Virus record (IMG/VR): IMGVR_UViG_3300042879_001567
Coordinates: 1-39,454 of that record
Length of the DNA: 39,454 bases
Direction: 5' to 3' (one strand)
From: a virus
Lineage: Duplodnaviria; Caudoviricetes
The notes below the pieces were generated by a model. The model made no database searches. It saw only the letters and a program-made list of their open reading frames with translations, and was not told the origin of the DNA. Below, one piece after another: positions 1 through 27,600 of this stretch; positions within the stretch are counted from its first letter, which is position 1; each line of letters begins with the position of its first letter. The translations under genes were made by a program, and so were the position numbers.

Positions 1-127
1 TCGCGGAGGTCGCGCTGCGCCTTCGCCTTCTCCTGGCCCCGCAGGTCGAGCGGGTCATAGTTGCTCACGATGCCATCCTACCAAATGCGATGTTTCGCAT
101 TGCGAAGATCAGCCGCCGTACAGCATC
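1..127. repeat. 127-bp terminal direct repeat (copy 1), most likely circular-assembly overlap
   Basis: 1..127 is identical to 39328..39454. The gene order runs continuously across the join. Confidence 0.95.
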
Positions 128-420
128 GTCGCCGCCGCGCCGAAGTTGCCGGCGCCGCCGATCTCCATGTCGGTGATCTGGAACTCGACCTTCTTCTCGG
201 TTCCGCCGGCGGTCTGCTCCGCGCCCGCCGACTTGACATAGGCACGGGCCGTGATCGTCACGACGCTGCCGATGGACGGCGGCGCGGTGATACGCAGCTT
301 CTCGAGTTCATCCGACTCCAGCTCGAGGCAAAGCCCCTCCGGGTACATCGGCTCGTCCATCTCGACCTGACCCGGCATCTCCTCGCGCTCTGGTTCGCGC
401 TTCATCGAAATCATCGCCAT
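109..420 (-). CDS. Small virion/head protein, 103 aa (epsilon15 gp10 staple / BPP-1 Bbp20-like)
   Basis: Real start is ATG 420 after AAGGA. Sequence MAMISMK...YPEGLCLELESDELEKL...VEFQITDMEI. Lies directly downstream of the portal. Confidence 0.6.
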   Translation of the reverse strand: MAMISMKREPEREEMPGQVEMDEPMYPEGLCLELESDELEKLRITAPPSIGSVVTITARAYVKSAGAEQTAGGTEKKVEFQITDMEIGGAGNFGAAATMLYGG

Positions 421-431
421 GTGGTTTCCTT

Positions 432-2144
432 TCAGACTTCGACGGCTGACGGAGATCCGTAGCCGCTGAACATGTTCATCACGTCGGTCAGGGCGTTGTT
501 GCCGCCGGTCGGCGCCTGCGCCATGTTCTTGACGGTCTGCGACTGCTGCTGCATCGCGGCCGCCTGCTCCTTGGTCGCCATCGCCTGGTTGCGCGTCTGG
601 CGCACCAGCGCGACCTCCTTGTCGGCGACGATGAGCGACGGGTCCACGCCGAGCATGTCCGCGTAGATGTCGGCCCACTGGTCGGCATCGAACTTGTCGA
701 GGATGTCGGGCTTCATCTGCGCGATGGCGCCGAGGTTGCCGACGAACCTGTCAACGGCGTTCGTCCCGATGGCGCGCTGCGCCTGCGCCAGCATTGACAC
801 GAACTCGACGTTCAGGTCCATGCCCTGCAGTTCCTCGGGCGCGGGCGGCAGCACCCCTGACTGGATCATGCGGTTGAAGGTGATGTCAATGAGCGGGTCG
901 AGCAGCTCGTTGTGCAGGCGCTCGAGGACCGGGCCGAGCATCAGGAGCTTCTCCTCGTGGCGCTCGGCGACCTCTGTGGCGGTCATGCGCGTGTTGGGCG
1001 CGGTCGCCAGCATCAGGAACAGGTCGGCGTAGAACGCGCCGCTGACGCGGCCGCGGCAGTCCTGTATGTCCTGCAGCAGGTAGTCGAGCCGCAGGTTGAC
1101 GTCGAAGGCGCTGCGGATGCCGTTGCCGGCCGGATCGACGTAGGTGATCCCGCCCGGGAGCGAATCGACGTCCCGGTTCTTCATCGAGGTCGGCACCTGC
1201 AGCGGCGGCTTCGTCTGGTAGTCGATGGCCTGCGCCTTGCGGAGCTGCTCGTGCTGGAGCTGCTTGACGTCGCCGAGCGCCTCCATGCCGGGGCTGTTCC
1301 CGTAGATGTCGCCGCCGACCACCGACCAGCGCGGGCAGAGCGCGGGGAAGTACATGAAACCGCTCTCGCGCAGGAACTTGTCCTGCTCGCCGCCGACCTC
1401 GAAGTACCACGACCCGTAGGGCATGTTCCTGTCATCGCGCTTCGTGATGTCGCGGTCCATGCGCGGCTCAATGGCATGCACGACCGGAACCCACGTGTCG
1501 AGCGTGCCTGTCTCGTACATGTTCCGCACGGACGTCGAGCAGTTCTCGAGGCCGAACTCCTTGACGAGCTGCGACACGGTCATGTCGAACTCGCGGTACA
1601 ACGTGCAGACGCGGCCCTGCGCGTCGGTCGAGATGCAGTACTCGCCGGCCGTGAGCGGATAGTGGTGGATGACCTGGTCGAAGTCGGGAAGCACGATGCT
1701 CGAGGCCGTCCCGAACGCGCCGAGTTCCTCGTACATCAGGTGCAGGGAGCGGTAGGTGTTCGACTTCTGGAACACTCGCTGCATGCGCTTGGTGACGTCA
1801 TCGAGCCAGAGCTTGACGGGCTGGTACGAGTTCAGCTCGGGGTCGGGCGTGGCGAGGCGGAACCACTGCCGTGCGGGTGACGTGGCACCTGACATCAGGC
1901 CGGCGCCGAGCGTGCGGAGCGCCCGCGTCCCGGTGTTGTCGTAGATGTTGTTGTGCCGGCGATAGCCGCGGTTGCGGTCCTCGCGGAAGTAGCGGCCGTT
2001 GCGCGGGAGGAGGTAGGAGGTGATCTCCTGCCAGTGCGCCATCCACGATGCGCGCTCGCTCTTGAGCTGACCCCAGCGCGTGAACAGGCGATCCCTCGTG
2101 GGAGCGTCCGGGTAGGAACGGTTGTCGCCTGTGTATTCGCTCAT
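432..2144 (-). CDS. Portal (head-to-tail connector) protein, T7 gp8/BPP-1-like
   Basis: 570 aa with motifs GLMSGATSPARQWFRL, YGNSPGMEALGD and MTATEVAERHEEKLLMLGPVLERL, typical of podovirus portals. Confidence 0.95.
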   Translation of the reverse strand: MSEYTGDNRSYPDAPTRDRLFTRWGQLKSERASWMAHWQEITSYLLPRNGRYFREDRNRGYRRHNNIYDNTGTRALRTLGAGLMSGATSPARQWFRLATPDPELNSYQPVKLWLDDVTKRMQRVFQKSNTYRSLHLMYEELGAFGTASSIVLPDFDQVIHHYPLTAGEYCISTDAQGRVCTLYREFDMTVSQLVKEFGLENCSTSVRNMYETGTLDTWVPVVHAIEPRMDRDITKRDDRNMPYGSWYFEVGGEQDKFLRESGFMYFPALCPRWSVVGGDIYGNSPGMEALGDVKQLQHEQLRKAQAIDYQTKPPLQVPTSMKNRDVDSLPGGITYVDPAGNGIRSAFDVNLRLDYLLQDIQDCRGRVSGAFYADLFLMLATAPNTRMTATEVAERHEEKLLMLGPVLERLHNELLDPLIDITFNRMIQSGVLPPAPEELQGMDLNVEFVSMLAQAQRAIGTNAVDRFVGNLGAIAQMKPDILDKFDADQWADIYADMLGVDPSLIVADKEVALVRQTRNQAMATKEQAAAMQQQSQTVKNMAQAPTGGNNALTDVMNMFSGYGSPSAVEV

Positions 2145-2145
2145 G

Positions 2146-2535
2146 TCAGCCCCCGAGGAGGGTGGATCGTCCGAGCTGCAGGTCGGCGGGGTTCACGCCC
2201 ATCGGCCCGGTGAGCATGGTGCTGGACGGGCCGCCTGCGGCCTCCTGCGCGCTCGCCATGATGGCCTGCACGTTCGGCTCGCGGCGCTGTGCGCCTGCGA
2301 TGGCCTGCTCGCTGCGGCGCTGCTGCATGGCGGCCTGCGCGACCTGCTGCTGCTGCGCTGCGGCCTGCTGCCGCATGGCCTCGCTCTGGGCCTTCTTGCC
2401 AGCCTCGCCGCTCGAGATCGTGTACCCGAGTCCGGCGCCGGTGGCCGCGAGTCCCGCCGTGGCAAGCGCACCAACAGTCCCTGCCGCTGCCGCCGATGCA
2501 CCGAGAGCGGTGCCGAGTGCTGCGAAGAATGGCAT
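2146..2535 (-). CDS. Small Ala/Gln-rich virion protein upstream of portal
   Basis: 129 aa with hydrophobic Ala/Gly N-terminus, Q-rich coil and TMLTG...TLLGG tail. Its position matches T7 gp6.7/7.3-like genes. Confidence 0.55.
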   Translation of the reverse strand: MPFFAALGTALGASAAAAGTVGALATAGLAATGAGLGYTISSGEAGKKAQSEAMRQQAAAQQQQVAQAAMQQRRSEQAIAGAQRREPNVQAIMASAQEAAGGPSSTMLTGPMGVNPADLQLGRSTLLGG

Positions 2536-2985
2536 CTAGCCTCCCTTTACGTAGGTCATCTCGCTCGGCTCGTACCCGAGCTTTCGCAGCATCCTACCAA
2601 CCTGCTCCCCGTTCTCCGCGACGAGTTGCGACATCGCGACCACGTGCGCGCCTTGCTCGTGCGCCCACTCCTCGTATGCGCGCACCAACCGGATCGCCGC
2701 GCTCGAGCCGCGGGCCTCCTCGTCAACCCACCACGCCAGTTCGTGCGCGACCAGGATGTGCGGCGCGAACCACATCGGCGCGACCGCGCAGGCAAGCATC
2801 CCCACCGTCCTGCCGTCGATCTCGGCGAGGAACCACGCGCCGACCTGCAGGAACGCAGCCACGCCGGCGCGGAGCTGCTCACGGTCGGCCGTCACGTACT
2901 TGCCGTGCGGGCCGAAGGCGATGAACCGCTGGCCCATGTCAACGATTGCGTCCAGGTCATCGACGGTCGCCCTGCGAATTGACAT
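2536..2985 (-). CDS. GNAT-family acetyltransferase
   Basis: IRRATVDDLDAI start, WWVDEEARGS acetyl-CoA motif A, LGYEPSE end. Confidence 0.8.
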   Translation of the reverse strand: MSIRRATVDDLDAIVDMGQRFIAFGPHGKYVTADREQLRAGVAAFLQVGAWFLAEIDGRTVGMLACAVAPMWFAPHILVAHELAWWVDEEARGSSAAIRLVRAYEEWAHEQGAHVVAMSQLVAENGEQVGRMLRKLGYEPSEMTYVKGG

Positions 2986-4310
2986 CAGACTTCCTCGTAT
3001 GGGTCGTAGTCGCGCTGGCGCGGCGACAGTCGCTCGCGCACCTCGCGTGGCAATTGCTTGGCAACGGGATACGCGAACGTCAACGCAAGGGCATCGGCGA
3101 TGTCCGGGCTGCCGCCGCCCTGCAGCCGCTTCTTGATGTCATCCTTCGACTCAAGGCACCGCCGGCCGACCGCGTCGTACCAGTAGGTTGGCGTTGACAG
3201 TTCAGCCGTCAGGTCGGTGCGGTCGGGGAGGCAGCCGCCCATGTCGAGCCATTCCTTGACGCTCCACCACATTTCCGTCCGCTTGTTGACGAACAGGTTC
3301 GGGTTCGTGGCCTTGCCGCCGAACGGCACCTCGATCACGTCGTAGCCGAGCTGGCGCAGTCGGTCGATGACGCCGGCGCCCGCGCCGCTGTCAATGAACA
3401 CGGCGTCCGGGTCGCGGTCCTCGATGACGTTGGCGACGGCCGAGGCCAGGGTCATGTTGTCGATCCCGGTGAACACCTGCGGCGGCTCCATCCTCAGCCC
3501 CTGCCGCAGCACGATGACGCTGCGGTCATCGCCGAACCGGGCCGGGTCCACGCCGACCACGAGCGGGGATTCGATGACGTCGCCGTCCGCGATCTTGCGC
3601 TCGGCGGCGGCCGTGGCATCGCTCAAACTGATGAGCTGGTCCTCGCCGGCGGCGGCGAAGTCGCACAGATACTCTCGAGCGAATGCCTGCTCGGGCATGT
3701 CGCGCTTGAGGCGGGCGACCTCGTCCTCGTCCAGGGCGTCCGTGTCGTGGACGGTGTATCGCGCCGCCCACCAGTCAGGGAGGCTCGAGGCGCGGTAGAA
3801 CAGCTCGCTGAACAGGTTCAGGCCGTTGGGCGTCCCGATGAACATGGCCCAGCCGCGGCGGTCGGACAGGGCCGGCTGCAGGATGTCCTGCCAGACCTCG
3901 GGCTTGATCTGGGCGACCTCGTCAATGACGCACCCGTCGAGGCGAACGCCGCGCAGGGCGTCCGGGTTGTCGCCGCCGAACAGGCGGATGGTCGCCTTGT
4001 TGTGCTTGAACGTGACGGACAGGTCTGCCTCGTTGATGTCAACGGCGGCAGTACGCAGGAACGGGTCGAGCTTCTGTTTCAGGCGCGCCCAGGCGATGGC
4101 CTTGGCCTGCTTGAGCAAGGGGGCCACGTAGACGAACAGGCCGAGCGGCTCCTTGAACCTCGCCGTCTGGTGGAGCAGTTCCATGAGCGCCAGCTCGGTC
4201 TTGCCGGCACGGCGGTGCAGGGCGAGGACAGTGAACCGCTTGCGCTCGAGGTGGCATCGCCGCTGCCATGGCCGCGGCTCGTATCCGATCCGAACGGTTT
4301 CAGTCCGCAT
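2985..4310 (-). CDS. terL: Terminase large subunit
   Basis: Walker A HRRAGKT, LRG..LDGCVIDE Walker B, IGTPNG motif III, RNase H-like nuclease GVDPARFGDD and SPDIADAL. Confidence 0.95.
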   Translation of the reverse strand: MRTETVRIGYEPRPWQRRCHLERKRFTVLALHRRAGKTELALMELLHQTARFKEPLGLFVYVAPLLKQAKAIAWARLKQKLDPFLRTAAVDINEADLSVTFKHNKATIRLFGGDNPDALRGVRLDGCVIDEVAQIKPEVWQDILQPALSDRRGWAMFIGTPNGLNLFSELFYRASSLPDWWAARYTVHDTDALDEDEVARLKRDMPEQAFAREYLCDFAAAGEDQLISLSDATAAAERKIADGDVIESPLVVGVDPARFGDDRSVIVLRQGLRMEPPQVFTGIDNMTLASAVANVIEDRDPDAVFIDSGAGAGVIDRLRQLGYDVIEVPFGGKATNPNLFVNKRTEMWWSVKEWLDMGGCLPDRTDLTAELSTPTYWYDAVGRRCLESKDDIKKRLQGGGSPDIADALALTFAYPVAKQLPREVRERLSPRQRDYDPYEEV

Positions 4311-4701
4311 GCGGGACGCCGGTGATGACGTTCAGGATCACGCCGCCCTCGTGGGCGACGGCCTGCCTGTCACCGTACTTCTTGGGGTTCCACTTCGCGA
4401 GGAGCTTGAGGATGGTGTCAACCTGCAGCCTGCGCTGCGTGACCTCGACCTGGTCTTGGCACGGATCGAACGCAATCCGCAGGCACTTGTCGGCGAGTTC
4501 GTCGTAGCCTTCCTCGCGGGCGCGTGCGATGCGTAGGGAAAGTCCCTCGTCCCGGTCCATCCAGTCGTACACCGTAGTGAAGTGCGGCTTGCCCGGAAGT
4601 CTGCACCACTCTCGCATGGGCTTGCCTTCCGAAATCCACGCAACGAGTTCATTCACAAGTGCTTGCGTCATTTCCGGCGGCCGCCCAAACTTGCGCTTCA
4701 C
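4300..4701 (-). CDS. terS: Terminase small subunit (Sf6/P22-like)
   Basis: Probable GTG start at 4701 overlapping the upstream stop (GTGA). GRP..., HTH-like ISEGKPMREWC...TVYDW, AKWNPKKYGDR. Directly upstream of terL. Confidence 0.8.
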   Translation of the reverse strand: MKRKFGRPPEMTQALVNELVAWISEGKPMREWCRLPGKPHFTTVYDWMDRDEGLSLRIARAREEGYDELADKCLRIAFDPCQDQVEVTQRRLQVDTILKLLAKWNPKKYGDRQAVAHEGGVILNVITGVPHAD

Positions 4702-4847
4702 TTCTTTCGGCGCTTCGCTGCCTTTGCCTTGTCGGCGCGGACGAACTTCTTGGCTACCGACATGGGTACTCCGACCTTTGCGGCGAACGAGCGGCTGTGA
4801 GCTGCTGCCTGCATGAGGCGCTTCTGCGCCGGCGACTTGCTTGGCAT
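4698..4847 (-). CDS. Small basic phage protein, 49 aa (MPSKSPAQKRLMQAAAHSRSFAAKVGVPMSVAKKF...)
   Basis: ATG at 4847 after GAAGGA, coupled to both neighbours. K/R-rich. Confidence 0.7.
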   Translation of the reverse strand: MPSKSPAQKRLMQAAAHSRSFAAKVGVPMSVAKKFVRADKAKAAKRRKK

Positions 4848-5092
4848 CACGGTTCCTTCGGGGTGAGGGTGAGGTTGAATCCTGCTGCATGTGCGATCTT
4901 CAGGATGGAGTCGAATGCGGGCTTTCGGCGCCCGATGACGGTACCGGGCGAACCGAGCAGGCTCTTGACGGTGTGGGCGCGGAGGATTCCCTTGCTGTCC
5001 ATGTCGTTGGCGAGCGCGGAGCGCGTGCTTCCGCGGCTGGCGACTGCTTCGGTGATGGCGCGCTTGAAATCGTCGTAGCAACGAATCTGCAT
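4847..5092 (-). CDS. Putative XRE-like HTH DNA-binding protein
   Basis: TRSALAND...PAFDSILKIAHAAGFNLTL resembles the XRE fold. Start placed at ATG 5092 (leaderless, extended -10 at 5100-5108). Confidence 0.5.
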   Translation of the reverse strand: MQIRCYDDFKRAITEAVASRGSTRSALANDMDSKGILRAHTVKSLLGSPGTVIGRRKPAFDSILKIAHAAGFNLTLTPKEP

Positions 5093-5105
5093 ACGGCCGA
5101 GCATA

Positions 5106-5387
5106 TCACTTGGAATTGACGATCTCGCCGAAATCTTCGGAGGTTGCTGCCCAGCAGATGCGCGGGGTGCCTGGTCCGAGGTAGTTGAGTTCGATGCGGT
5201 CGGTGACGAACGCGAGTGCTTCGGCGTGCGAGAGGTGTTCCTGGTCGCGGATGCGGGCTGCGATCATGTCGCCGGAGTACAGCGCAACGGGGATTCCCTC
5301 CTCGTTGGGGAGCGGGTAGACCTTGCCGAGGAGGCAATCGTCAAGTCCCGCGAGGAGGATTGGCATGCACTTTTTCCGCCGTGCCAT
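5106..5387 (-). CDS. Hypothetical phage protein, 93 aa
   Basis: Clean ORF in operon order (GLDDCLLG...EALAF...YLGPGTP). Confidence 0.65.
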   Translation of the reverse strand: MARRKKCMPILLAGLDDCLLGKVYPLPNEEGIPVALYSGDMIAARIRDQEHLSHAEALAFVTDRIELNYLGPGTPRICWAATSEDFGEIVNSK

Positions 5388-5405
5388 GCGTGGAAGTCTA
5401 CAGAG

Positions 5406-5442
5406 GCAGACCCCGCGAACATGATTTGCTCACGGGGTCTGC
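5406..5442 (-). terminator. 16-bp stem-loop (terminator-like or processing site) after gene 5464..6045
   Basis: GCAGACCCCG/CGGGGTCTGC plus 6 bp with G-U pairs on the minus strand. The U-tail is weak. Confidence 0.5.
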
Positions 5443-5463
5443 GAATGTTGCGGAGGTTGTCGG

Positions 5464-6045
5464 TCAGGCGGGTTCGCGCTCGGGGTCGGGCGGGTTGTGC
5501 TGGGTCTGCGAGATCACCCAATTCCTGAAATCGTCGTAGTGCCGGCGCAGGCTTCGGCTTTCGCTTGCCCACTCCTGGGTGTCGTAGTCTTCGACCTTGT
5601 TGTGCATGTCCTCGATGAGCCTCTCCGCTGACTGCCGTGCTTCGCCGACGTGTTCGTGCTGCTGGACGGCGAGGACAATCCTGAACTGCGGCGTGCCTTT
5701 GGCGTCAACGCCGTGCCACCACCACCATTCGTCATCCTCGGGGTCCATCAGCTCGAGGTGCGGTGCCATGCGCTCGGGCAGCACCTCGACGCGGGCGCCG
5801 AACTCGAGCGTGTCGCACTCGATTGCGCCCATGCGCGAGTTCCAGCGGAAGGCGACGGTCCCGGGCCACTTCAGGTTCCACGTGTCAATCAGCAGCTCTG
5901 GCGTGATTCTGTTCCCGTGGCACAGGCCGAAGTTAATGCGTGATGACAGGACGGAAGCGTTGTCATCGCACCACTTCTCAAAGCCAGGGACGTCGAGCGT
6001 CATCGTGCTGTCGTGTTGGTCGCGCCATGCAATCACGTACCACAT
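5464..6045 (-). CDS. Hypothetical Trp-rich early protein, 193 aa
   Basis: Strong RBS AAGGAG, with its own promoter upstream and a hairpin downstream. Confidence 0.7.
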   Translation of the reverse strand: MWYVIAWRDQHDSTMTLDVPGFEKWCDDNASVLSSRINFGLCHGNRITPELLIDTWNLKWPGTVAFRWNSRMGAIECDTLEFGARVEVLPERMAPHLELMDPEDDEWWWWHGVDAKGTPQFRIVLAVQQHEHVGEARQSAERLIEDMHNKVEDYDTQEWASESRSLRRHYDDFRNWVISQTQHNPPDPEREPA

Positions 6046-6099
6046 GTCAATCTCCTTGGTGATGTTTCAGATCGGCGGCACCTCGCCGCCTTGGCGTGG

Positions 6100-6128
6100 A
6101 TCGTATACGCCCTCGTAGGCGCGGTCAA
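6100..6128 (-). promoter_or_regulatory. Sigma70-type promoter P3
   Basis: TTGACC (6128-6123), 17-nt spacer, TACGAT (6105-6100). Confidence 0.65.
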
Positions 6129-6571
6129 GGGTTCTGCCGGCACCATTCGACCATGAGCGCGATGATGCGCCGCTGCGTGACGTGCAGGCCCATCCGCTCC
6201 TGCGCGGCGGCGATCTCGTGCGGGCTAGCCGTGGCGAGGATGCGCTCGGCGTCTGCCTCCCATTCGGCGAGTTCGTGGGCCGGCGGCGGCTGGCAGTCGA
6301 GGTGTTCGCGGCGCGTGCGCTGCACCTCGTTGATGCCCTCGCTGCTGGCGTTGTTGGCCGAAGTCACCTTGCAGTACGCCTTGTGGATGCTCGAGAGGTC
6401 CGGCACCTTGTCTCGCTCGAGGCGGTGCTGCTCGATGCAGTCGCGCAGCTTGTCCTGGTGCAGCTGTCCCCAGCGCCGGTTCAGGAGGTTGGCCTCGGCC
6501 TGGGACGGCTTCCATCCCGGCCAGAGTTCGACCATGAGTTTCTTGTTGTCAATCCATGAGATGGCGTCCAT
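6125..6571 (-). CDS. Hypothetical protein downstream of the replication initiator (possible helicase-loader partner)
   Basis: 148-aa ORF with RBS GAGGA. The function is a positional guess only. Confidence 0.55.
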   Translation of the reverse strand: MDAISWIDNKKLMVELWPGWKPSQAEANLLNRRWGQLHQDKLRDCIEQHRLERDKVPDLSSIHKAYCKVTSANNASSEGINEVQRTRREHLDCQPPPAHELAEWEADAERILATASPHEIAAAQERMGLHVTQRRIIALMVEWCRQNP

Positions 6572-6582
6572 GTTCGTCCTCG

Positions 6583-7098
6583 TCAGAATGGCGTGTAGGT
6601 TGGGTTGGATCGGTTCTCTTCAAGTTCCTTCAGCCTTCGCCGCCGCCCCCCCTTCCGTGAAGGGGGGGCTATGGGGGGATCTATATGTGAATGTGGATGT
6701 GGATACGGACGGTCACCGCTACGGTCACCGTCACGGTCACCGTCACGCTGACCGTGCTTTCGCTTCGCATTTGTGGCCTCAGCGGCCATCTGGCGCGCCT
6801 TACGCACCTTCTCGGTCTTTGCGCGCTCACGTTCCATGCGCGGATGCACCCATGCTTGCACACGGTCACCGTCACGGTCACCGTGCGGAACGAGTCGCGC
6901 ACGGATCTGCGACCACGCCTCTGGTGTCATCCCTCCCGTGATTCTCTGTAACTCGTTGTTGTCACTCGGGATGCATCCGTTTATCCACGCATAGCACAGC
7001 AGTCGCGTGTAGGCGCCGACCACCTCAGGCGCCATCGACATGGTGCTGGCGATGAAATCCGGCACGTACAGGGGAAACCATGGCAGGTCCGTTGCCAT
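6583..7098 (-). CDS. DUF1376/YdaU-like replication initiator (replisome organiser)
   Basis: MATDLPWFPLYVPDFIASTMSM...GAYTRLLCYAW...GCIPSD...L.RI; HPRMERER coil. Contains iterons. ATG 7098 with GGAG 6 nt upstream. Confidence 0.8.
   Translation of the reverse strand: MATDLPWFPLYVPDFIASTMSMAPEVVGAYTRLLCYAWINGCIPSDNNELQRITGGMTPEAWSQIRARLVPHGDRDGDRVQAWVHPRMERERAKTEKVRKARQMAAEATNAKRKHGQRDGDRDGDRSGDRPYPHPHSHIDPPIAPPSRKGGRRRRLKELEENRSNPTYTPF
6709..6885. repeat. Six 12-bp near-palindromic iterons (ACGGTCACCGTC), putative replication origin
   Basis: Four tandem units at 6709-6756 and two at 6862-6885, inside the initiator gene as in lambda O. Confidence 0.7.
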
Positions 7099-7112
7099 CG
7101 TGAACTCCAACA

Positions 7113-7192
7113 GACCGGGGCGGGACAGGGAGCGGCTGCAAGCAACCTATCCCGCCCTCGGTCATTGAGATGTCGAGCAGTTGCAGCCGCTC
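7113..7192 (-). promoter_or_regulatory. Structured 5' leader of the initiator mRNA (interleaved 12-bp and 17-bp helices)
   Basis: 7192-7181 pairs perfectly with 7141-7130. 7163-7146 pairs with 7129-7113 (one bulge, one U-G). Confidence 0.65.
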
Positions 7193-7209
7193 TGCGCGCA
7201 GTATATCAT
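7181..7209 (+). promoter_or_regulatory. Sigma70-type promoter for a small RNA, overlapping the divergent promoter
   Basis: TTGCAG (7181-7186), 17-nt spacer, TATCAT (7204-7209). Confidence 0.55.
7200..7208 (-). promoter_or_regulatory. Extended -10 promoter for the initiator operon
   Basis: TGaTATACT. The predicted start (~7192) coincides with the first base of the leader helix. Confidence 0.6.
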
Positions 7210-7215
7210 CTCCTC

Positions 7216-7354
7216 GTCGGTTGTGTCGCCGGGATGCCCCAGGCTTGTTGCCTGTTCGGCGCCGCGACTGACAACGGGAAGCCACGGACGGCTCCCGAAC
7301 TTTGCCCCCGGAACGCGCCCCGCGTTGATCTCACGATCCGCGGGGCGTTTCTTT
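7216..7354 (+). ncRNA. Putative ~140-nt structured small RNA
   Basis: Promoter, three hairpins (7216-7272, 7275-7297, 7316-7347) and a U-tail. G-U pairs form only on the plus strand. No credible ORF. Confidence 0.55.
7316..7354 (+). terminator. Intrinsic terminator
   Basis: CGCCCCGCG/CGCGGGGCG stem followed by TTTCTTT. Confidence 0.7.
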
Positions 7355-7490
7355 CGTCGTTGTCCGACCCGAAACGACCTTGTCCGACCTTGTCCGCCCC
7401 GGCTCGTATGTGAGCGAATCCGCCACACTTGTGACGATGTGTAGTACTTCCGCTCCAACGACCGACATTCCGTAGCAGTACCCTCCCCGT

Positions 7491-7979
7491 ATGCGCGTCA
7501 CGCTCGTGGATACCGAGGTACGGATATGCAAGTGGTTGGCCGCGCAGCGGTTTGCGGTTGCCCGCCGTTCCGGCGTGAGCGACAGGCAGATGGGGCCGCA
7601 GTCGAGCGAGCAGACCGACCTTGACGGGATCGCCGGCGAGTTCGCGTTCTGCAAGGCCATGAACCTCTGGCCCGACATGACCATCGGCGCACGAAGCGGG
7701 GGTCACGATGCCGCGTTCGGAGCAACGTCCATCGACGTCAAGACCACGCGGCACGCAAGCGGGCATCTGCTCGCTACCACCAAGAAATCGGACACCGCCA
7801 GCGACGTGTATGTCCTCGTCATCGGGACGATCCCGGAGTTCCGCGTGGTGGGCTGGGCATCAGCGGCGATGCTGTTCCACGAGGACAACCTCAGCGACTT
7901 CGGGCATGGCCTTGGATACGCTCTGCCGCAATACAGGCTGCGGCCGCTCCATGAGCTGCGGGACAGCGCACGAACTTAG
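7491..7979 (+). CDS. Putative PD-(D/E)xK nuclease-fold phage protein
   Basis: GIAGEFA...GHD...IDVKTT motif pattern. Confidence 0.55.
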   Translation: MRVTLVDTEVRICKWLAAQRFAVARRSGVSDRQMGPQSSEQTDLDGIAGEFAFCKAMNLWPDMTIGARSGGHDAAFGATSIDVKTTRHASGHLLATTKKSDTASDVYVLVIGTIPEFRVVGWASAAMLFHEDNLSDFGHGLGYALPQYRLRPLHELRDSART

Positions 7980-8127
7980 TCGTGCCTGCCCCTGGCGGTA
8001 GGTTGCTCTTTACCCCAATGGCTGCGCCGGCGGGCGGCGTACCTCGCGGCCTTCAGGCCCGCCCCATGCAGGGAATCGGCTCCGACCCCTCAGCCCCGCA
8101 TCTCCGCGTCCGTAGGATACTGCCACG

Positions 8128-8697
8128 ATGCCGCGCCACGCCAATCTTCCGCACCACCTCTACATCCATGTCAACAACGCCGCGCTCGGGCCGAAGATGC
8201 CGGAAGGCACGACGCGAGCCATCTGGCATGCCGTCTACTGCCGGCCTGGGCAGATCGTGATGGCGCACGTCCTGCTCGAGACAGGCGCGGAGTGGTGCGG
8301 CGTTCCCCTGCACATGATCGCGTCAGGCCCGGATGCGTTCCGCGTCAAGCAGCTCAGCGGCCCGGAGGCTCCCGGCGACCTCCAGCCCTGGGGCGCGATG
8401 GGCGACCACGTCGAGGCCGTCCACCTCGAGTACCTCGAGGGAATGATGGCGATGGGAAGCGGCAAGGGACCGGGCTTCTGCGGCAACCACACGGGGATCG
8501 TCATCGACTGGTCGGACGGCTTCTCGCGCTACCCGCAGGAACACAAGCCGCTCAACCTCATCGAGCGCAGCGACGGGAAGTACCTGCTGTATCCAAACAA
8601 CTACATCCGCCTGCTGGACAAGCACTTCACGAACTGGAAGAAGGACGATCAGCTCCAGCACTACCGCCGCGGCGACCGCGTGTTCTGGGAGATGTAA
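8128..8697 (+). CDS. Hypothetical phage protein, 189 aa
   Basis: Clean ORF with genome-typical codon usage (LQPWGAMG, QEHKPLN, LYPNN). Confidence 0.7.
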   Translation: MPRHANLPHHLYIHVNNAALGPKMPEGTTRAIWHAVYCRPGQIVMAHVLLETGAEWCGVPLHMIASGPDAFRVKQLSGPEAPGDLQPWGAMGDHVEAVHLEYLEGMMAMGSGKGPGFCGNHTGIVIDWSDGFSRYPQEHKPLNLIERSDGKYLLYPNNYIRLLDKHFTNWKKDDQLQHYRRGDRVFWEM

Positions 8698-12041: not shown

Positions 12042-12282
12042 CGATGACATCGTCCCTCGCCTGCGTCTTTGGGCCGAGGGCGTTCAGAACCAAAAGGCCG
12101 TCGTGCTGGCGGTTGCGATCACCGAAGCCGCCGACGAGATCGAACGGCTGCGTAAGGAGCGCGACGAGGCGAGGCGTATGTATTGCGGACGGGTATCCCG
12201 CGATGTGCCGCTTGATGCGTTTGATATTGCGAAGAACCACGGTTGGGATTGCTTTCCACAGGAGGACGAGCCATGCCAGTAG
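12034..12282 (+). CDS. Small coiled-coil protein (EIERLR..ERDEARR...GWDCF family)
   Basis: Paralogous to 12448..12738. Confidence 0.65.
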   Translation: MDDDDIVPRLRLWAEGVQNQKAVVLAVAITEAADEIERLRKERDEARRMYCGRVSRDVPLDAFDIAKNHGWDCFPQEDEPCQ

Positions 12283-12458
12283 GCGGCAGATACAAGAACA
12301 CGAAATACGGACACAACGCATCGGGCGACGATGTGTTCTTCATCCTCATCCCGATCTTCGCGGTCGTCCTGCTCATTGCAATGATCGGGGAGACTCGGAG
12401 AGCCAAGAGCAGCACGAACCACAACACCACACAGAAGGAGACTCGCCATGTTCAGTAA
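12273..12458 (+). CDS. Small single-TM membrane protein, 61 aa
   Basis: RBS GGAGGA; hydrophobic stretch VFFILIPIFAVVLLIAMIG. Confidence 0.6.
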   Translation: MPVGGRYKNTKYGHNASGDDVFFILIPIFAVVLLIAMIGETRRAKSSTNHNTTQKETRHVQ

Positions 12459-12738
12459 CACCTGCGCCATGACACTCGCACAGAAGTCCGACCGCATCCT
12501 CGCCCAGACGCGAGGATTGAGCGGAGCGACACCGAACGCCACGCAACTCATCGAAGAACTGCGGTGGGCGTTGGAGGAGAACAGGAAGGAAGTCGAACGC
12601 CTCCGCGCTGAGCGCGACGAGGCGAGGCGGGAGGTGTGCAGCATGAACGAAACCGGATTTCGTATGAACGAGAGTGACAAGAAGCGCGAAGCCAAGCGGC
12701 GCGGATGGGACTGCTTCAAGGAGAACACCGATGACTGA
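12448..12738 (+). CDS. Small coiled-coil protein (EVERLR..ERDEARR...GWDCF family)
   Basis: RBS AAGGAG; paralogous to 12034..12282. Confidence 0.65.
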   Translation: MFSNTCAMTLAQKSDRILAQTRGLSGATPNATQLIEELRWALEENRKEVERLRAERDEARREVCSMNETGFRMNESDKKREAKRRGWDCFKENTDD

Positions 12739-16468: not shown

Positions 16469-18265
16469 TTACAGGGTGGTCAGGGCGTTGATAAATGACT
16501 GTGACTGCGAAATAGGCCAGAACTTGATCGCTCGAAGCCATCCGTATATCTGCGTCGGGCCGGGAGCAAACATCCTGATTCGATCAATGCTGCTCGGAGA
16601 TGCGCCGTTGTCGCCTGCAATGCCACTGAATGTCGCACCGTTCTGCGAAAATCTGTAATCAGCAGTTCCATACGCGAACGCAGACTTGGCCCGTGCCGTT
16701 GCTGTCGGAGTGAACTGCCTTGCGGTTGTTCCGCCCCGAGTCGCAATCGCAATGCCCCGACGAATCGAAAGCCTGTTCGTTTCGCTTCCGCCTGAGTTGT
16801 CCGCAAGTTGAATCCCAGATTGGTTCCCAGACAGCGCGGTGTATTCGACATCCGTGTAAAAGGTTCCCTGTGCAGCCGTGTACCACGATCCTATTGCGAA
16901 GTTCGTTGCATCCATGAGGCATTCATCCGCACTCCTGCTCCCCGTGCTTGCCCCGGTCGGGATATAAGAACTGGCCCCGTTTCCTGCCTCGGCCTGTGCG
17001 CCATACACCAAATACCCGTCTGCCCCAACAACAGTATCTACACGCAGACGCATTCTCGCATTTGCTGGCGTTGCGGATGTGGTTACGGTGTATGTGACAC
17101 GATACCAACCATCACGAAATGCGGTGTATCCCCAGCCAACTGTTGTACCACTAGTAGTTGACGCATTTGGATTGTTGAAATCGAAATTTACTCCTCCTCC
17201 AGTTCCTACCCAAGCCGAACCAGTTCCAGTCGCAAGACTTGCATACTGATTTGTTCCCACCTTCTTGACAAAGCACGACAAGGTGTAGACGGTGTTTGCC
17301 GCCAAACCAAGCGCAGTTTCGATGTAATTGCCAGTAGTACCAATGGCAATTTTGGTCGCATTATTTAGACCATCTGGAGATGGGCCTTGAGAACCCTGAA
17401 CAACAATTCCAGTTCCAATTTGCGACCAGTAGGTTGCATTCGATAAATCAACACTACTAAAGACTAGGTTGTTCGCGCTTCCCTCAATCAGCAGTCCTCG
17501 CGGAGTGCCGATGGAGGTCGGGTCGTAGTCGAAGCGGGGGCCGTGGTATTCAGAAGGGCTTGCACCAGAAGAAGTATTGACAACATACGGAAGAGGAAAT
17601 GTGCCGTCCCACAGTCCAAAGCGCGGACGCGCAAATGTCACTGTCGCCGTTACATTTCCAGATGTTCCAACACCAAAGAATGGAGTGGAGTTTGCTGCTG
17701 TCGGAGAGTCCGCAACGAATGTCAGCGTGCATGGCCCTACTACAGTGCCGCTCGTATACAGATTGCTGTTGATGTAGTACACGCTGTTTGTCAGCGTTCC
17801 ATCACGAAGCAATTGCGTTGGAATAAGCCCGGTGTCCCCGTTGCTGGTTATGTCAACCGACACAATAATGCGGCGTCCAGATCCAGCGAAACTCGTAATC
17901 CTGTTTATGGTGCAACGGCCACCAGATGCAGACATGGTGACCGAGCCATCGCCATTGAATGTGGCGGTTCCAGCCGTAAACCCATACGACCATCCGACAT
18001 TCGATAGTGTTGGGTTGCTTCCAGAAATACCCGCAAAGTTGGTATTGAAAAACAGGTTTTGTTCGGCGTACTTCACCAGCCCGCTAGCGTTGATGAACGT
18101 GGCGTTACTGGCGCGGGTCAACGTCAGGCGCGGGTCGAGCGTGTTGCCCATCGTCGTGAAGTCCAACGACAACGTGCTGCCGTCGCCGAGGTTGTTCATC
18201 AGCAGCAGCTGCTCGTCCGCGCTCCTGGCGAACGGGCGATGGAATCGGCCGAGGAGGCTACGCAT
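16469..18265 (-). CDS. Head-spike/tail fibre protein with lectin/CBM-like beta-sandwich domains
   Basis: SLDF..., TRASNATF, PRFDYDP..RGLLIEG, GWYRV, GAQAEAG..ASSYIPT. Confidence 0.75.
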   Translation of the reverse strand: MRSLLGRFHRPFARSADEQLLLMNNLGDGSTLSLDFTTMGNTLDPRLTLTRASNATFINASGLVKYAEQNLFFNTNFAGISGSNPTLSNVGWSYGFTAGTATFNGDGSVTMSASGGRCTINRITSFAGSGRRIIVSVDITSNGDTGLIPTQLLRDGTLTNSVYYINSNLYTSGTVVGPCTLTFVADSPTAANSTPFFGVGTSGNVTATVTFARPRFGLWDGTFPLPYVVNTSSGASPSEYHGPRFDYDPTSIGTPRGLLIEGSANNLVFSSVDLSNATYWSQIGTGIVVQGSQGPSPDGLNNATKIAIGTTGNYIETALGLAANTVYTLSCFVKKVGTNQYASLATGTGSAWVGTGGGVNFDFNNPNASTTSGTTVGWGYTAFRDGWYRVTYTVTTSATPANARMRLRVDTVVGADGYLVYGAQAEAGNGASSYIPTGASTGSRSADECLMDATNFAIGSWYTAAQGTFYTDVEYTALSGNQSGIQLADNSGGSETNRLSIRRGIAIATRGGTTARQFTPTATARAKSAFAYGTADYRFSQNGATFSGIAGDNGASPSSIDRIRMFAPGPTQIYGWLRAIKFWPISQSQSFINALTTL

Positions 18266-21659: not shown

Positions 21660-24600
21660 CTACCTTTGCTGGACGCCCATCACGGCGGAAAGCGGATTCT
21701 CAGTCTCTCCCTCCGACAGCGCCTCAAGGCCGTCGATGGTGCGGTTGATCTGCGCGCTCGGCAGGCCCAGGCCGATGCCGAGCAGGTCCACGGCCGAGCG
21801 GCGGAAGCCGCGGTCGAACTCGCCCTGCATCGCCTGCTGCACGAACCTCTGCGACGTCACGATTCCACGCAATCCAGCCGGACCCTCGTATCCGCGCATC
21901 TCGCCGTCAATCGCGCCGGACAGTCCCTGGAACTCGCGAAGGTACGGAAGAGTGCCGATCAGGTATTCGGCCTCGGCGCGTGTCAATTTCGCGGCGATCT
22001 TCTGAAGATCCTTCTCCTCGACGTCGTCATCGTCGGGCGTCAGTATTTCCTTGAGTACCTGCTCGACCATCACCGGGATGACAAGCACCAGCAGCATGTC
22101 GTGCGCCAGCTTGCCCTTGCTGCGTGCATTCATTGCCTGCACGGTCGATAGGTTCAGGACGGTGTTGAAGTACGAATAGAACACCGTGAACAGCTTGGCA
22201 AGCCCCTGTTCGCGCTCGATGCGAGACAGATCCTTCAGCAGGCCGCTGCCCTGCGTTGCAATGACGTCCTGGTCGGCCATCGCGCTGGCAGTAGCCTCGT
22301 CCTTGCCGGCGGCAAGCGCGTTCTCGTAGCCGGCCAGCCATGTCGGGATGTCAACGAGCCGCTGCATCGAAAGCATCATCGTGTATGCATGCGACTGCAT
22401 AATCCTCTGCCAGCCACGCTGCCCACGGACGCGATTGCGGATCTCGTTCAGCTCGCGGAATTGAGTCCTCGAACGCATCTCCATGAACTTGCTCATGGAA
22501 TTGACACGGCGCATGGCCTCGCGTGGATTCGTTGCAAGGACGCTGATTCCGCGCAGCAGCGGGCCATAGCCAACCCTGACAATGGAATTGGAGAACCCGG
22601 TGAGCTGCATGAGCGCACCGCGCACCGAATACCCGAGGCCGGCCACGCTCACGTTCTGACGAAGGTACGAGGACGCAACCGCGCCGGCGCTCATCATTCC
22701 GCGGTTGCCGGTTGCGTTGTCCTCAATCCATCTCTTCAGTTCGATGAGGAACTGGTCGCCGTACCTCGAGCGCACCACGGAATCGAAGTCGGCGCTGTTG
22801 AGGAGCCTGTTCGCGTCAATCAGCCATTCATGCCATGCCAGGTCGTGGATGACGTCGGTCACGCCGCTCCACAAGCCCTGCAGGCTGTACAGGATCGGCT
22901 TGTTCTCGACCTTAGCGGCACGCTCCTTCGTGAACGTCCTGCGGGTCGTGGCCGCCGTGTATGCGCCCCTGAGCTGCTCCTGGGCCTGCTCGACCTCCGA
23001 CTGCTTCTGGGCGGTCATGTTGGCGACAGGGTCGTACACGATTGGGTAGTACCCGCCGCGCAGAGTCTTGGTCTGCCCGTCAACCGTGCGGACGATCAGC
23101 TCCTGCGGCTCGACCCAGTTCGGCTCGCGGCCGTACAGGCGACGCTCCTTCTCGGCGATGAGCGGCCTGTACTCGTCCATGAAGTCCCAGACCTTCTGGA
23201 CCGCATCCCATTCCTCCGACGTCAGCGTCTCGAGGACGGGACGGAGCTGCTCCATCGTCCACCCTTCGCCGTCGAGCAGTCGCTGGATGTTGCCGGCATT
23301 GCCCATGTTCAGGGCGATTGCCAGCCGCGCCTCGCGGGTCAGCGACCTGTTGATGGACGGGAACATAGGTGCGCCGCCCATCATGCTCCCGCCGCGGAAC
23401 CACGGCTCTAGGATCTCGTTGATCCGCTCCGTGGCCTTGGCGTTCATCTCCGTCTCCATGTTCGCACGCTCGCTCGCCGTGCGTCCCATGTACTCCCACA
23501 GCGGGCCGCCTGGGCCACCGTCGAGGATCTCGATGATCGCCCATGCCTTGATCGTGGACCCGAAGAATCCTCGGAACCGGGCTGCTGCCTTTCCGGCCTT
23601 GGTCTGCGCCGAACGCCGGATCTTCTCGTCGCGACCCTTCGACCGTGCGACGGCCGTGGTTCGCTTGATGATGCCTTCCTTCACCTCGTTGAACTTCGCC
23701 TTCTGCTTCTCGAGCAGCACCTTCTGCTCGTGCTTGCCCATGTACTCGATGGTGCGGACGGCCTCCACCAGCTCGCGGAACTGCTCGAGCGTCAGTTCCT
23801 TGTACGGGACGCGGAACGCGGCCTTGGCGAGGTCCTCGGAGATGTCGGGCTTAATGCCGTCAGCCTCCATCTTCTTCAGCCAGTCGCCGAGATCGGCCAT
23901 CCGCTGGCGCTGCTCGGCCGACATTGCCACCAGGTTGACGTTCGCCAGCAGAGCCTCGATCTGGTCCGCGTACTCCGCGCCCATGCGCTTGCGGTTCTCG
24001 GCGCGAAGCACCTTCCGCAGGTACTTGACCTGCTTGTCAACGAATGCCGTCGCCTTCCGAGCCTCGGCGGCCAGTTGGTTCTGGTAGAGCTGCGCCCGCT
24101 TCGCCCGGATCACCAGCAGGTCCGCATTGACGTTCCCGTAGTTATCGGTGAATCGCTGGATCTCGGCGGCCGACTTCTGCATGGAGGCGGCCCGTGCGGC
24201 CTCTCCGGCGGCTTCTGCGGCCTCCGTGGCGGCCAGGAGGGCTTCGGGCGTGTCTTCGCGGGGAGCGGCCAGGACGGCGTTCTTGGCCCGCGTATAGGCC
24301 GCCTGGGCGGCTGCTGCCGGGTTCCCGCCGGCGCGGCGGGCGTTGGCGGCATCGCGGGCCGCCCGCGCCTCGGCGGCCTCGTGTTCCCGCGGGTTGATGT
24401 TCTTCAGGCGCTTGCCGCCGATGATGTCCTCGGCAGCGATCCGGGCCGCCTCGAGCATGACCCGGACGGGTTCCGTTGCACGCGAGATGTGGCGCAGCTC
24501 CACGGCAATGAACCGCGCCCTGGCCTCGTTGTGGACGGCCATTGCGATCCGCTGCTCGCGGGCCGCCGGCGAGTCCATTTCCCCGTACCGCTCCTGCATC

Positions 24601-27600
24601 AGCGCGTCGGTTCGCTCCTCGATGGCGTCCTTCATCGGCTTTGCGCCGACGAGGTCACGGATCATGGTGTCAGCACTCGGGTATCCGAACGTCTCGGCGA
24701 CCATGCGCGGGTCCAGCCCTTCCGTCGCGAGCATGCCGCCCCTGCCGGTGCCGAGCTTCCGCCAGTCAGGCTGGAGGATCGCAGGCACGGCCATCCCGGT
24801 CGCACGGATTGCCGCCACCGATTCCTCGGTCGGGATGCCCTGGTAGACGGTTTCGACGCCGGCGATGGACAGCCTGTGGGGACCGTCAACCTTGATTTCC
24901 TCGCCGGCATCGTCGCGGAACATGCCCGTCCGCAGGTAACCCTGCACCCGGTACACGAGGCGTCCGCGCACCTCGGCCTCGGCCTCCTTGCGGACCTCGC
25001 GCCGGCGGGACTCCATGTCCTTCGTCTCCTCGCGCTCGGCGCGGGCGCGTGCGCGGCGCAGCCAGCCGACCTGCGCGAGGCTCGCCTTCGTCAGGTCAGC
25101 GATGGCCTGCTCGTCGGCTTCCTCGTTCATCTGGACGTAGGCCGCCCACGTGGCGTCGTCCATGTTCGCCTCTTCCTGCGTCTGGAAGTGCGGAGCCATC
25201 GACTGCACGGCCTGGTAACGGCGGATCTGCTCCTCGCTCGCGAGCATGCGGTCCATCACCTGCCGAACCTCGTTGGTCAGGATCGGCAGGTCGCGCCCGA
25301 ACTCGCGGCGGTAGATGGTGGCAGGCGTCTCCGTGATTGTCTTGTACAGACGGGTCAGGTACGAGCGGAACCTGCTGAACAGGCCGCGCAGCTCCGCGCT
25401 CGGAGCCTTGCCATCCCATGCGTAAATCTCGAAGCTGTACGCGAACTGCTCGTGGTACTTGCGCTGCTGCTCGACGGTCATGCCGAGCCACGATTCAAGC
25501 CGCGCCTCCGGCGTTGCGCCGGCAATGCCGAACCACTTCAGCAGCTCGTTGATGTCGGCCTTGACCTGCGCCGGCGCGTCGGGCTGCTGCGCGATCTGCG
25601 TGTAGATCGTGAGGAAGGCGTGCGCCGCCTCGTGGATCAGAGTTGACAGGTCGCCGCCCTTGGCGATTGTCGCGGTCAGGCTTCTCGGGTCGAAGAAGCC
25701 TCGGGCTGGGCCGACTGCGGCTTGGGAGTACCTGCCGAGCTGCTCGTTGACAAGTCGGGACGCTTCGCCCCGAATAGCATCAAGACGCCGCCTCTCGTCA
25801 GCTCGCGCAGGTCTTCCTTGGTCAGCGGCTGCACCTTCGACGGCTGGTTCTGGTTCTCGATCATTGAGGCTCCATGCTTCGCCGTGCTTGATGCTGACGA
25901 TCCGAGGATCGGTGCCAACGGCTTGGTCAATTCTACGCGCCAGTTCCTCGCTGTCAACGCCCGCTTCCAACCCGATAATCATTCTCGAGCCAACGGTGGA
26001 GTGGCCGACCTTCGTGACCTGGTAGAGCTTGTTCTCGTATAGGTCGGCGATTTCTGCCGGCGTGGTTCCGGGCTGCAAGTCGATCACGACCAGGCCGGCA
26101 CGCTCGGACCCGACAAACTCCTCCTGGGAGATCGAGAAGATCGACTCCTGCGACAATACGTACCGGAGTGCCTTCGACACCTGCCGCACCATCGTCGTGG
26201 ACGGAAGCGTCAGCGCGAACGACATGTTCGTCGCTCCGTCCCATCCACCGACCTGTTCCTCGAACGAGCCAGAGATACCGAACTCCGCAAGCACTCGCGG
26301 AATGATCTTGCTTGCGACCTCGCGGCTGATCTGAAAACGAGCCTCCGGCGTCAACGCATTCCACGCTGCCGTCAGTTCGGTGTTTCGCGGATCTGGCGCG
26401 ATCTCGAACATCAGGCGCGTCGCTTCCTGCATCTGCCGGCGAATCATCGGCTCCATCGCGTCCATCAGTTCACGCGACCGACCCGAGTAGGTGGAACCGA
26501 CCGGGAGGTCCGAAGGCTGCGCCACCCACTCCGGCGTCTTGATCCCCTTCGACAGCGTGAACACCTGGTCGCGTGCCGCTTCCAGCGTGATCTCGCCCTT
26601 CATGTACTTGGCCCACACTTCGGCGATGATCGGCTTCAGGGTCTTCTTCTCGGCCGCGACGAACAGTCCACGGATTGCCTCCCAAGTGATCGACTGCTCC
26701 TCGCGTGCGATGATGCCTCGCTTCGCGGCAGCACGCTTGTACGCCTCGAAGATGATCGGATACCCGCCGTGCAGGCCGAGCTTCGCGTCGGAAACGCCGG
26801 CTCCAAGACCCCAGCCGACGACCTCGTCGCTCGCAGACAGCGGCGAAAGGAACGCCGCGGCAATGGCGTGCGTGTCGATGGTCGCGGCGTTGACGTTCTG
26901 CGGGTCGAAGATGTTGTTGTAGAAGTTCCTGACCTTGTGCGCCTTGCCGATCTGGTGGTGGACGTTCTCGGCGCGGCCGTCCTCGAAGACGCTGATGGCC
27001 TTCTGGATGGTCGAGTATGACCCCCAGCGCATCGACATCGGCCCTGATGCGCCCATGCTCGGGCCTGCCATGCCTCCTTCCGGCGTGATGATCGCGAAGG
27101 AACGGTCGTTGTGTTCCTCGTCGAACATGCGGACGAACATCGCAGCCAGCTCGAGATCCCTTGTCGCGAGGACGGTGTTCAGCGTCCCGTTCCGCATCGC
27201 ATTCATTCGGTCGGACGATGACAGCGCATCGAGGTAGGCAAGGCGCTTCCTCTTGCCGTCGAGCATCTTCTCGAGGCGAACGGTTCGCTTCTGCCATTCG
27301 ACGACATCGTCCTCGTACTGCTTGACGCGCTCCGCGAACTGCGCTTCCGTCTCGGCCTTCTGCTGCCCTGGCATCCTCGGAGACTTCGGCCGGTCGCGAC
27401 GGTGGGCAGCCATTTCGGCACGGAGCATCGTCGTCGATTCACCGGCTTCCTGCTTCTCCTCGAGTTCGGTTTCGTATTCCTTGAGCTGCGCCTGCCATGT
27501 CGCGAGATCCGCCTCGTAGGCGGCCTTCATTTCCTCGCGCTTGGCGTCGAACTCCTTCTTCCGCGCCTTGAATGCGGCGTCTGATTCTGCGACAAGCGGC

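Follow-up and report, generated by a model that had tools for sequence, protein, structure and literature searches.

Textbooks describe RNA control of replication initiation in plasmids and in a few temperate phages, and C4/CI RNA is known as a multi-stem fold. The closest described systems, as presented in the available text of the papers cited here, each share one or more features with the leader that we analysed. In P4 (CI, seqA and seqC) and in P1 and P7 (C4), a segment of a replication-operon leader complements an upstream segment of the same transcript (PMC4825925, PMC10111431), and P4 CI, like the Gifsy-1 RNA IsrK, acts in trans on the transcript that it comes from (PMC4825925). IsrK has two alternative folds in one 5' region, ends in a Rho-independent terminator, activates translation through coupling to orf45, and serves antirepressor control (PMC4825925). 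In the rep leaders of IncI1 and IncB/O plasmids, which precede a replication-initiator gene, the loop of a hairpin base-pairs with a complementary stretch some way off, and the sequence of the antisense RNA (Inc/RNAI) sets incompatibility among the I-complex plasmids (PMC8053102, PMC10286972). Kissing loops of RNA I and RNA II choose between nascent-RNA folds in ColE1, where 555 bp separate the start of RNA II from the origin (PMC11012335). The put element of HK022 opens a long phage transcript; its roughly 70 nt lie immediately after PL and form two stem-loops (PMC9378689). Lastly, the IMG/VR candidate structured RNAs of Fremin et al. (2023; PMC10690425) include DNAVirus_4653, _187 and _230, which lie at most 25 nt upstream of DUF1376/YdaU genes. 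DNAVirus_4653 has 124 nt and 43 sequences, 13 of them before DUF1376, DNAVirus_187 has 49 nt and also precedes DUF4373 genes, and the available text gives no mechanism for any of the three.

The window analysed here is the whole 39,454-nt stretch of IMG/VR record IMGVR_UViG_3300042879_001567; it is a complete phage genome that has direct repeats at its ends and T7-like head-tail genes. The features at and around its replication-gene leader are collected in Table 1.

Table 1. Positions of leader elements and associated features, in window coordinates unless another contig is named.
Feature	Position	Strand	Remark
Extended -10 TGnTATACT	7208-7200	minus	inside promoter part 7200..7229 (-)
Segment A	7192-7181	minus	
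Hairpin 1: A (7192-7181) paired with its twin C (7180-7175)	7175..7192	minus	loop CTGCAA, 7186-7181
Linker, 11 nt	7164..7174	minus	
Segment B, G-rich 5' arm of hairpin 2	7146..7163	minus	15 of 17 pairs changed on both sides
Segment A', complement of A	7130..7141	minus	variable part is the apical loop of hairpin 2, 7141-7134
Hypervariable 'code' pair, A versus A'	7186:7136	minus	
Segment B', pyrimidine-rich 3' arm of hairpin 2	7113..7129	minus	no U-tract after it
SD GGAG (7108-7105) and start codon (7098-7096)	7096..7108	minus	
Predicted divergent promoter	7181..7209	plus	-35-like TTGCAG 7181-7186 in A; -10 TATCAT 7204-7209
DUF1376 (YdaU-like) gene, 171 aa	6583..7098	minus	Pfam PF07120, E 1e-10; PHROG 3992, primosomal protein
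Iteron-like 12-nt repeats	6708..6886 (6708-6757, 6861-6886)	.	inside the DUF1376 gene
Second gene, 148 aa	6125..6571	minus	look-alike cluster; PF11417 G39P_N on 11% of members
L263/L287 locus	G405:C1, about 16710-17230	minus	ends in a GAGCG/GCGAAGC-rich tract adjoining the stop of the convergent gene

The original prediction had placed an extended -10, segments A, B, A' and B', a GGAG Shine-Dalgarno (SD) sequence and the ATG in this order on the minus strand, and all of these positions held. As it had also described, A and A' form a perfect 12-bp inverted repeat, and B and B' form 17 pairs that include one bulged A and one U-G pair, which reads as C-A on the opposite strand. It had made no mention of a third helix. 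Segment C nearly repeats the 3' half of A' and pairs with A in a 6-bp hairpin (hairpin 1), which is kept across the family with slight covariation of its own. The loop of hairpin 1 is complementary to the apical loop of hairpin 2 (B:B'), which reads TTGCAGCC. In the window, the 3' part of the linker can lengthen hairpin 2 by pairing with GTTGG in the SD region, and this extension is not uniform in the family. The extended -10 was the sole promoter-like match within positions 6900-8400. Among the 58 family variants described below, a permissive best-match scan placed a -10-like hexamer 7-10 nt 5' of A in 27 and 24-32 nt 5' of A in the other 31, which have extra 5' sequence, in 30 cases an inserted hairpin. 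A predicted divergent promoter overlaps the leader promoter, and a site of this kind scoring at least 7 of 12 occurred in 42 of the 58 variants in a scan without shuffle control; as it would fire away from the leader, it would make no antisense RNA to it. A 185-nt contig in an RNA library was identical to positions 6118-6302, which do not cover the leader, and two runs shared 5% of words.

The gene behind the leader had been taken for a replication initiator, and it looks like one, as it encodes a DUF1376 protein whose relatives are annotated 'primosomal protein' or 'replication protein' and contains iteron-like repeats. The PDB held no sequence relative of this protein, and a fold search gave Rep and ORC winged-helix (wHTH) matches of E 0.27 or worse; because these fold matches are weak, the designation as a likely initiator draws on family, context and repeats. 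By analogy, the repeats are a likely origin about 300-490 nt downstream of +1, and an origin inside the initiator gene is the lambda O paradigm. Just downstream of them, positions 6640-6700 contain a C/G-run inverted repeat and then an A+T-richer stretch, a possible unwinding region. The second gene is a possible helicase-loading partner, for which the G39P_N domain in its cluster is a weak lead. The minus-strand genes run on into terminase and portal, with one further promoter-like site at 6128-6100. In 84 ORF scans, in which many ORFs had no family, no integrase, repressor or partition family was recognised.

Compared with the systems above, the leader has a seqA-like feature in its covarying A:A' helix of 10-13 bp, but the element that bears A' is one long hairpin and not a multi-stem C4/CI fold, and the leader matched neither C4 nor isrK in Rfam. 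Unlike in P4, no seqC-like target, U-tract terminator, integrase or Bro/kil gene was recognised here. It resembles IsrK in its two alternative folds, but no intrinsic terminator or conserved upstream ORF (uORF) was recognised, and its first gene is initiator-like. The likeness to the IncI/IncB leaders lies in the pairing of a hairpin loop with a distant complement; here, however, the partner A occupies the 5' end, some 75-85 nt ahead of the SD and not beside the ribosome-binding site (RBS), and the three features that define those leaders in the available accounts (a leader peptide, an opposite-strand antisense RNA and an RBS-freeing partner) were not recognised. In contrast to ColE1, both kissing loops are on one strand and no antisense promoter was found; in two relatives (L263 and L287) an apparently non-coding stretch comparable in length with those 555 bp follows the motif, whereas in the window the DUF1376 gene does. 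The put element is alike in architecture, and complementary, diversifying loops are not reported for it in the available text of PMC9378689. By analogy, the design would work most like P4 CI/seqA and IsrK, without belonging to either family.

The original prediction had recognised no described family, and no Rfam family reached the gathering threshold, with no match to Rfam 15 in the window or in 20 related loci, and none on the motif in seven further loci (E up to 0.5 or 2). The best weak match on the motif (7130-7192, minus strand) was that of the Mycobacterium sRNA Ms_IGR-4 to segment A, at 17.9 bits against a threshold of 55 (E 1.9), and is probably due to chance. The motif is not described in the open full-text literature that was searched, and nothing matching appears in the passages covered of two motif surveys (PMC2864571, PMC5737381). 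The leader family is thus uncatalogued in Rfam, and the supplement of Fremin et al. may already list it; DNAVirus_4653 could be part of the family, to judge from its table rows (PMC10690425).

Protein and DNA-pattern searches yielded 562 loci and a profile gave 257 matches, from which we dropped three matches without an A:A' helix and, as chance, three of 61 distinct sequences; this left 58 variants from 251 loci, a redundant set that is not a count of genomes. Model R1 matched 57 of the 58 variants and none of nine other loci. The expectation of a conserved, covarying leader RNA was confirmed in an alignment of 57 sequences, where 88.5% of cells were paired and 20 of 29 pairs had changed on both sides; none of 500 shuffles reached this score, and slid structures paired in 43-47% of cells. 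This alignment was fitted to the two hairpins and not to A:A', and an unfitted 29-row alignment agreed with it. Compensatory changes were present in both crossing helices. G-U pairs accounted for 95 of 937 hairpin-2 pairs, which, together with the fixed spacing behind the -10, argues for an RNA made from the minus strand. The first gene after the leader was DUF1376-like in 40 of the 58 variants; among the remaining 18, a different gene followed in 14 (HNH-led or HTH-like by eye), contig ends cut off two, and two were gene-less. The leader is therefore kept while the first gene is swapped, suggesting that it travels as a module.

A loose DNA pattern gave mostly chance matches in viral contigs, and a pattern scan of a genome collection gave 120 loci, none of which was matched in the first profile run; one (L389) matched weakly later and was discarded as chance, R1 finding nothing in its genome or in three others. 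In the phylum of a Planctomycetales record, three of 401 sampled genomes had distant DUF1376 matches and none had the motif, and GenBank phages gave no DNA match of note. Two further observations concern the leaders of relatives. In nine variants (L002, L003, L010, L015, L225, L267, L268, L504 and L529), hairpin 2 is followed, ahead of the SD, by an additional conserved hairpin, GTCCGC...GCGGAC; several of these hairpin loops contain an ATG, in a frame that is not conserved. The leaders of distant DUF1376 genes in L187, L188, L189 and L198 (upstream of position 1501), which R1 did not match, follow by eye a similar logic in unrelated letters, as the loop of a small 5' hairpin corresponds to a strip left unpaired on the 3' side of a long one, and a U-tract is present; L188 and L198 also appear by eye to have a short ORF ending on the ATG of the initiator.

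The folding z-score of the leader was -3.3, with an equal fold in none of 200 shuffles, and crossing helices of 12 + 12 pairs were found in none of 2000 dinucleotide shuffles and in two of 3936 genome windows, both at the leader locus. Because A also pairs with C, the predicted lowest-energy fold is that of hairpin 1 and hairpin 2 with their complementary loops. Folding at increasing transcript length predicted A:A' between 52 and 72 nt, and hairpins 1 and 2 once 76 nt had been reached; across the family, a nascent RNA ending at A' was predicted to form A:A' in 57 of 58 variants, and in 56 of 58 the two hairpins of the full leader came out stabler by over 2 kcal/mol (median 9.8). The helices had originally been proposed to form a tight pseudoknot or to compete. 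Only 3-7 nt connect B to A', and these would have to span a helix of 10-13 bp, more than one A-form turn, so that competition suits the helices better than a tight pseudoknot. By A-form geometry, A:A' and B:B' should be unable to coexist in full, whereas a loop-loop kiss of 6-7 bp should be able to form. That the leader is a functional RNA with two alternative folds we consider very probable. In L003 (2885-2956), 13 nt of B are deleted relative to L002 in what looks like a natural event, although an assembly error is possible in this single case, and the RNA is predicted to be locked in A:A', which hints that A:A' is the permissive fold.

The pair 7186:7136 was G-C in 26, C-G in 26 and U-A in one of 53 rows, with no mismatch (four rows with longer loops were excluded). 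On a tree built without the loop columns this pair flipped 12 times; in leave-one-out controls each of 11 hairpin-2 pairs flipped at most once, and none of 11 unpaired linker sites had more than six transversions. Labels shuffled on the tree, which rests on about 75 columns and has many open forks, gave 11-24 flips (mean 18), so that the loop state is near random on it. L263 and L287 differ at two of 69 non-loop sites, yet they have different matched loops. The recurrent double transversion at a paired position suggests a specificity code that is read between molecules, although paired flips could also arise through template switching between inverted repeats, and the rarity of flips in hairpin 2 may reflect a G-rich constraint on B. 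The original description of a cis-regulatory RNA is retained as regards a conserved leader RNA, but the diversification of the loops makes purely cis action doubtful.

A U-tract (at least five U in 8 nt) was found in one of 58 variants, a few rows being parsed with an extended stem; this makes intrinsic termination unlikely, and we rejected an intrinsic terminator. A conserved uORF or leader peptide was likewise rejected, as an ATG occurred in the linker region of four of 58 variants with no conserved start, and the ATG at 7165 has no SD-like sequence ahead of it. A usable start codon allowed opening energies to be compared in 53 of the 58 variants. The cost of opening the stretch from SD to AUG was equal in both folds (16 versus 18 of 53), and anti-SD pairing was therefore rejected as a conserved output, but opening -22 to +15 around the AUG was dearer in the two-hairpin fold in 44 of 53. 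In the nine extra-hairpin variants this difference was lost or reversed (median 21.1 versus 23.0 kcal/mol), and these variants, together with gene-less L263/L287, show that crowding of the 30S subunit cannot be a universal output. A consensus scan found an antisense promoter into the leader (a site of at least 8 of 12) in none of the 58 variants. No seqC-like second target was found within about 1.4 kb in the 44 of 58 variants that could be tested (own code 9.0 versus other codes 9.0 of 11), and a scan of the window gave 13 matches against 7.0 +/- 2.9 expected, two of the 13 being A and A' themselves. With neither an antisense promoter nor a second target found, the leader RNA would have to be its own partner in any action in trans. 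When nascent and mature leaders were co-folded by a nested method, which cannot model kissing, B paired in trans and A:A' did not form. The translational control of IncI/IncB type put forward originally was not supported, as neither a conserved leader peptide nor an antisense promoter was found and the SD-to-AUG opening was equal.

In L263 and L287 the motif is followed by about 520 nt that show off-frame indels and no convincing gene, on the strand opposite the neighbouring genes and with a convergent gene beyond. Both records are fragments (71% and 45% complete), and the distal part of the stretch is common to these two viral records only. DUF1376 gave no match in either record, the 46 G405 ORFs that were scanned included no recognised initiator, and no Rfam match fell on the stretch, which is a candidate for a long RNA or an RNA-primed origin.

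Our preferred model, to which we give somewhat less than an even chance, is that the conserved two-hairpin leader, at the predicted 5' end of the replication transcript, is a self-antisense switch with a transient ON and a stable OFF state, in which accumulated leader RNA would shut down new replication transcripts. Hairpin 1 would form first, and when A' emerges, A:A' would zip up and trap B in a closed loop, leaving B' and the ribosome-loading region single-stranded for a while, which we take to be the ON state. The transcript would then relax to the stabler pair of hairpins as C displaces A' by branch migration; the end of hairpin 2, 15 nt ahead of the AUG, would crowd the 30S entry region and so produce the presumed OFF state, in which reduced translation might also make the operon polar. 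The A' loop of a relaxed RNA would kiss and capture the A of a nascent one before the latter's own A' exists, sending it straight to OFF. Such a switch would result in negative feedback on genome number and in incompatibility among phages that share a loop code.

The same folds could instead work as a timer in cis, with nothing acting in trans and a brief A:A' window (for ribosome loading or read-through) followed by OFF, rationing the initiator. The predicted folding order and energies agree with such a timer, as do the missing antisense promoter and second target and the distance of hairpin 2 from the AUG, 13-21 nt in most variants. It does not predict, however, that the loop pair should flip more often than unpaired sites, and it leaves the gene-less locus and the nine extra-hairpin variants unexplained, so that we regard it as possible but unlikely. 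We are more doubtful of a put-like role, in which a stable tertiary fold with kissing loops would bind RNA polymerase or a protein as a cis antiterminator or processivity element; the proposal that its target is the long operon from the initiator into packaging and virion genes belongs to this reading and shares its low standing. A promoter-proximal RNA of two hairpins without a U-tract, present whatever gene lies downstream, would fit this role, as would the letters GAGCG and UG/CA, invariant in the family alignment, and no N or Q homologue was recognised, bar a 64-aa HTH protein with a weak 'late transcriptional activator' match (E 0.0017). Against it stand the lack of an Rfam match and of any terminator-like site on the minus strand of 1-7100, a hypervariable loop that would not be expected, and the covariation of A:A' that reaches into the stem of hairpin 1 (alignment pair 12-75, A-U in seven rows), which needs the unzipped fold.

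Control of a primer or origin, where the fold would decide, in the manner of the alternative folds of ColE1 RNA II, whether an RNA-DNA hybrid persists or an origin 300-500 nt downstream is activated, appears improbable to us, as it draws on L263/L287, two of 58 variants and both in fragmentary records, and no RNA I-like antisense promoter was found, GC skew being uninformative. This reading would nevertheless account for the ~520 nt that the motif heads there in records without a DUF1376 match, for the exposure of G-rich B in the A:A' fold and its concealment in hairpin 2, for a pyrimidine content of B' that is always at least 75%, and for the similar distance of the iteron-like repeats in the window. 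Both helices cross and covary, as an activating pseudoknot of IncI/IncB type would require if A:A' and B:B' coexisted in full and controlled translation of the initiator; but 3-7 nt would have to cross the 10-13 bp helix, the extra 5' sequence of 31 variants, mostly a hairpin, should by geometry block threading of the 5' end, and no leader peptide, antisense RNA or pairing beside the SD was found, making this account very unlikely. Least credible of all is an element that acts as DNA (an operator, cruciform or recombination site). The overlap of A with the -35 of the predicted divergent promoter, here and in about 10 relatives, speaks for it, whereas the G-U bias on one strand, the fixed position behind the -10 and the maintenance of pairing through sequence change speak for RNA.

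The self-antisense switch may be part of a wider scheme, though we think this rather unlikely, in which a portable module of ~80 nt holds signal and sensor in one RNA, the loop letters mark self and non-self among repressor-less phages, and the module is attached to various initiators or to a priming RNA of ~520 nt. If this were true, replication feedback and phage-phage incompatibility would need neither a protein nor an antisense gene, and a ~520-nt primer might replace the initiator protein in some relatives. In tailed phages in which no repressor was recognised, the leader family would be a further case of RNA control of replication, and a compact one that has neither antisense gene, leader peptide nor terminator tract, and the loop-code signal and the gene-less relatives raise it above yet another leader hairpin. 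The loop-pair flips provide a sharp test of whether co-infecting phages count or recognise each other through RNA, and the natural loop codes (about ten A variants) would be ready-made orthogonal parts for RNA switches.

Several minor observations were made elsewhere in the window. On the plus strand, 7216-7356 is predicted to be a divergent leader or small RNA of ~140 nt, in which a long 5' hairpin comes first, followed by an ACGGAC-loop hairpin at 7276-7296, whose loop is similar to those of Csr/Rsm or AYGGAY type, and, at 7311-7354, by a third hairpin that ends in a U-rich tail. The sequence CCCCCGGAA, ahead of the last hairpin, recurs in many relatives. Three direct repeats of TTGTCCG(A)CC type, possible operator or binding sites, lie between that hairpin and the DUF5843 gene, at 7355-7401. 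The minus-strand ORF 7206-7766 was rejected as a gene, being without family and overlapping the plus-strand DUF5843 gene. A protein of 2996 aa (21660-30650, minus strand; phrog_9880, function unknown) is encoded at the position of an internal-virion gene. Finally, the 334 nt at 12260-12593 are 96% identical to positions 21670-22003 of G405, an otherwise distant phage, with short repeated pieces nearby, and may be a recently exchanged module or a conserved non-coding element.
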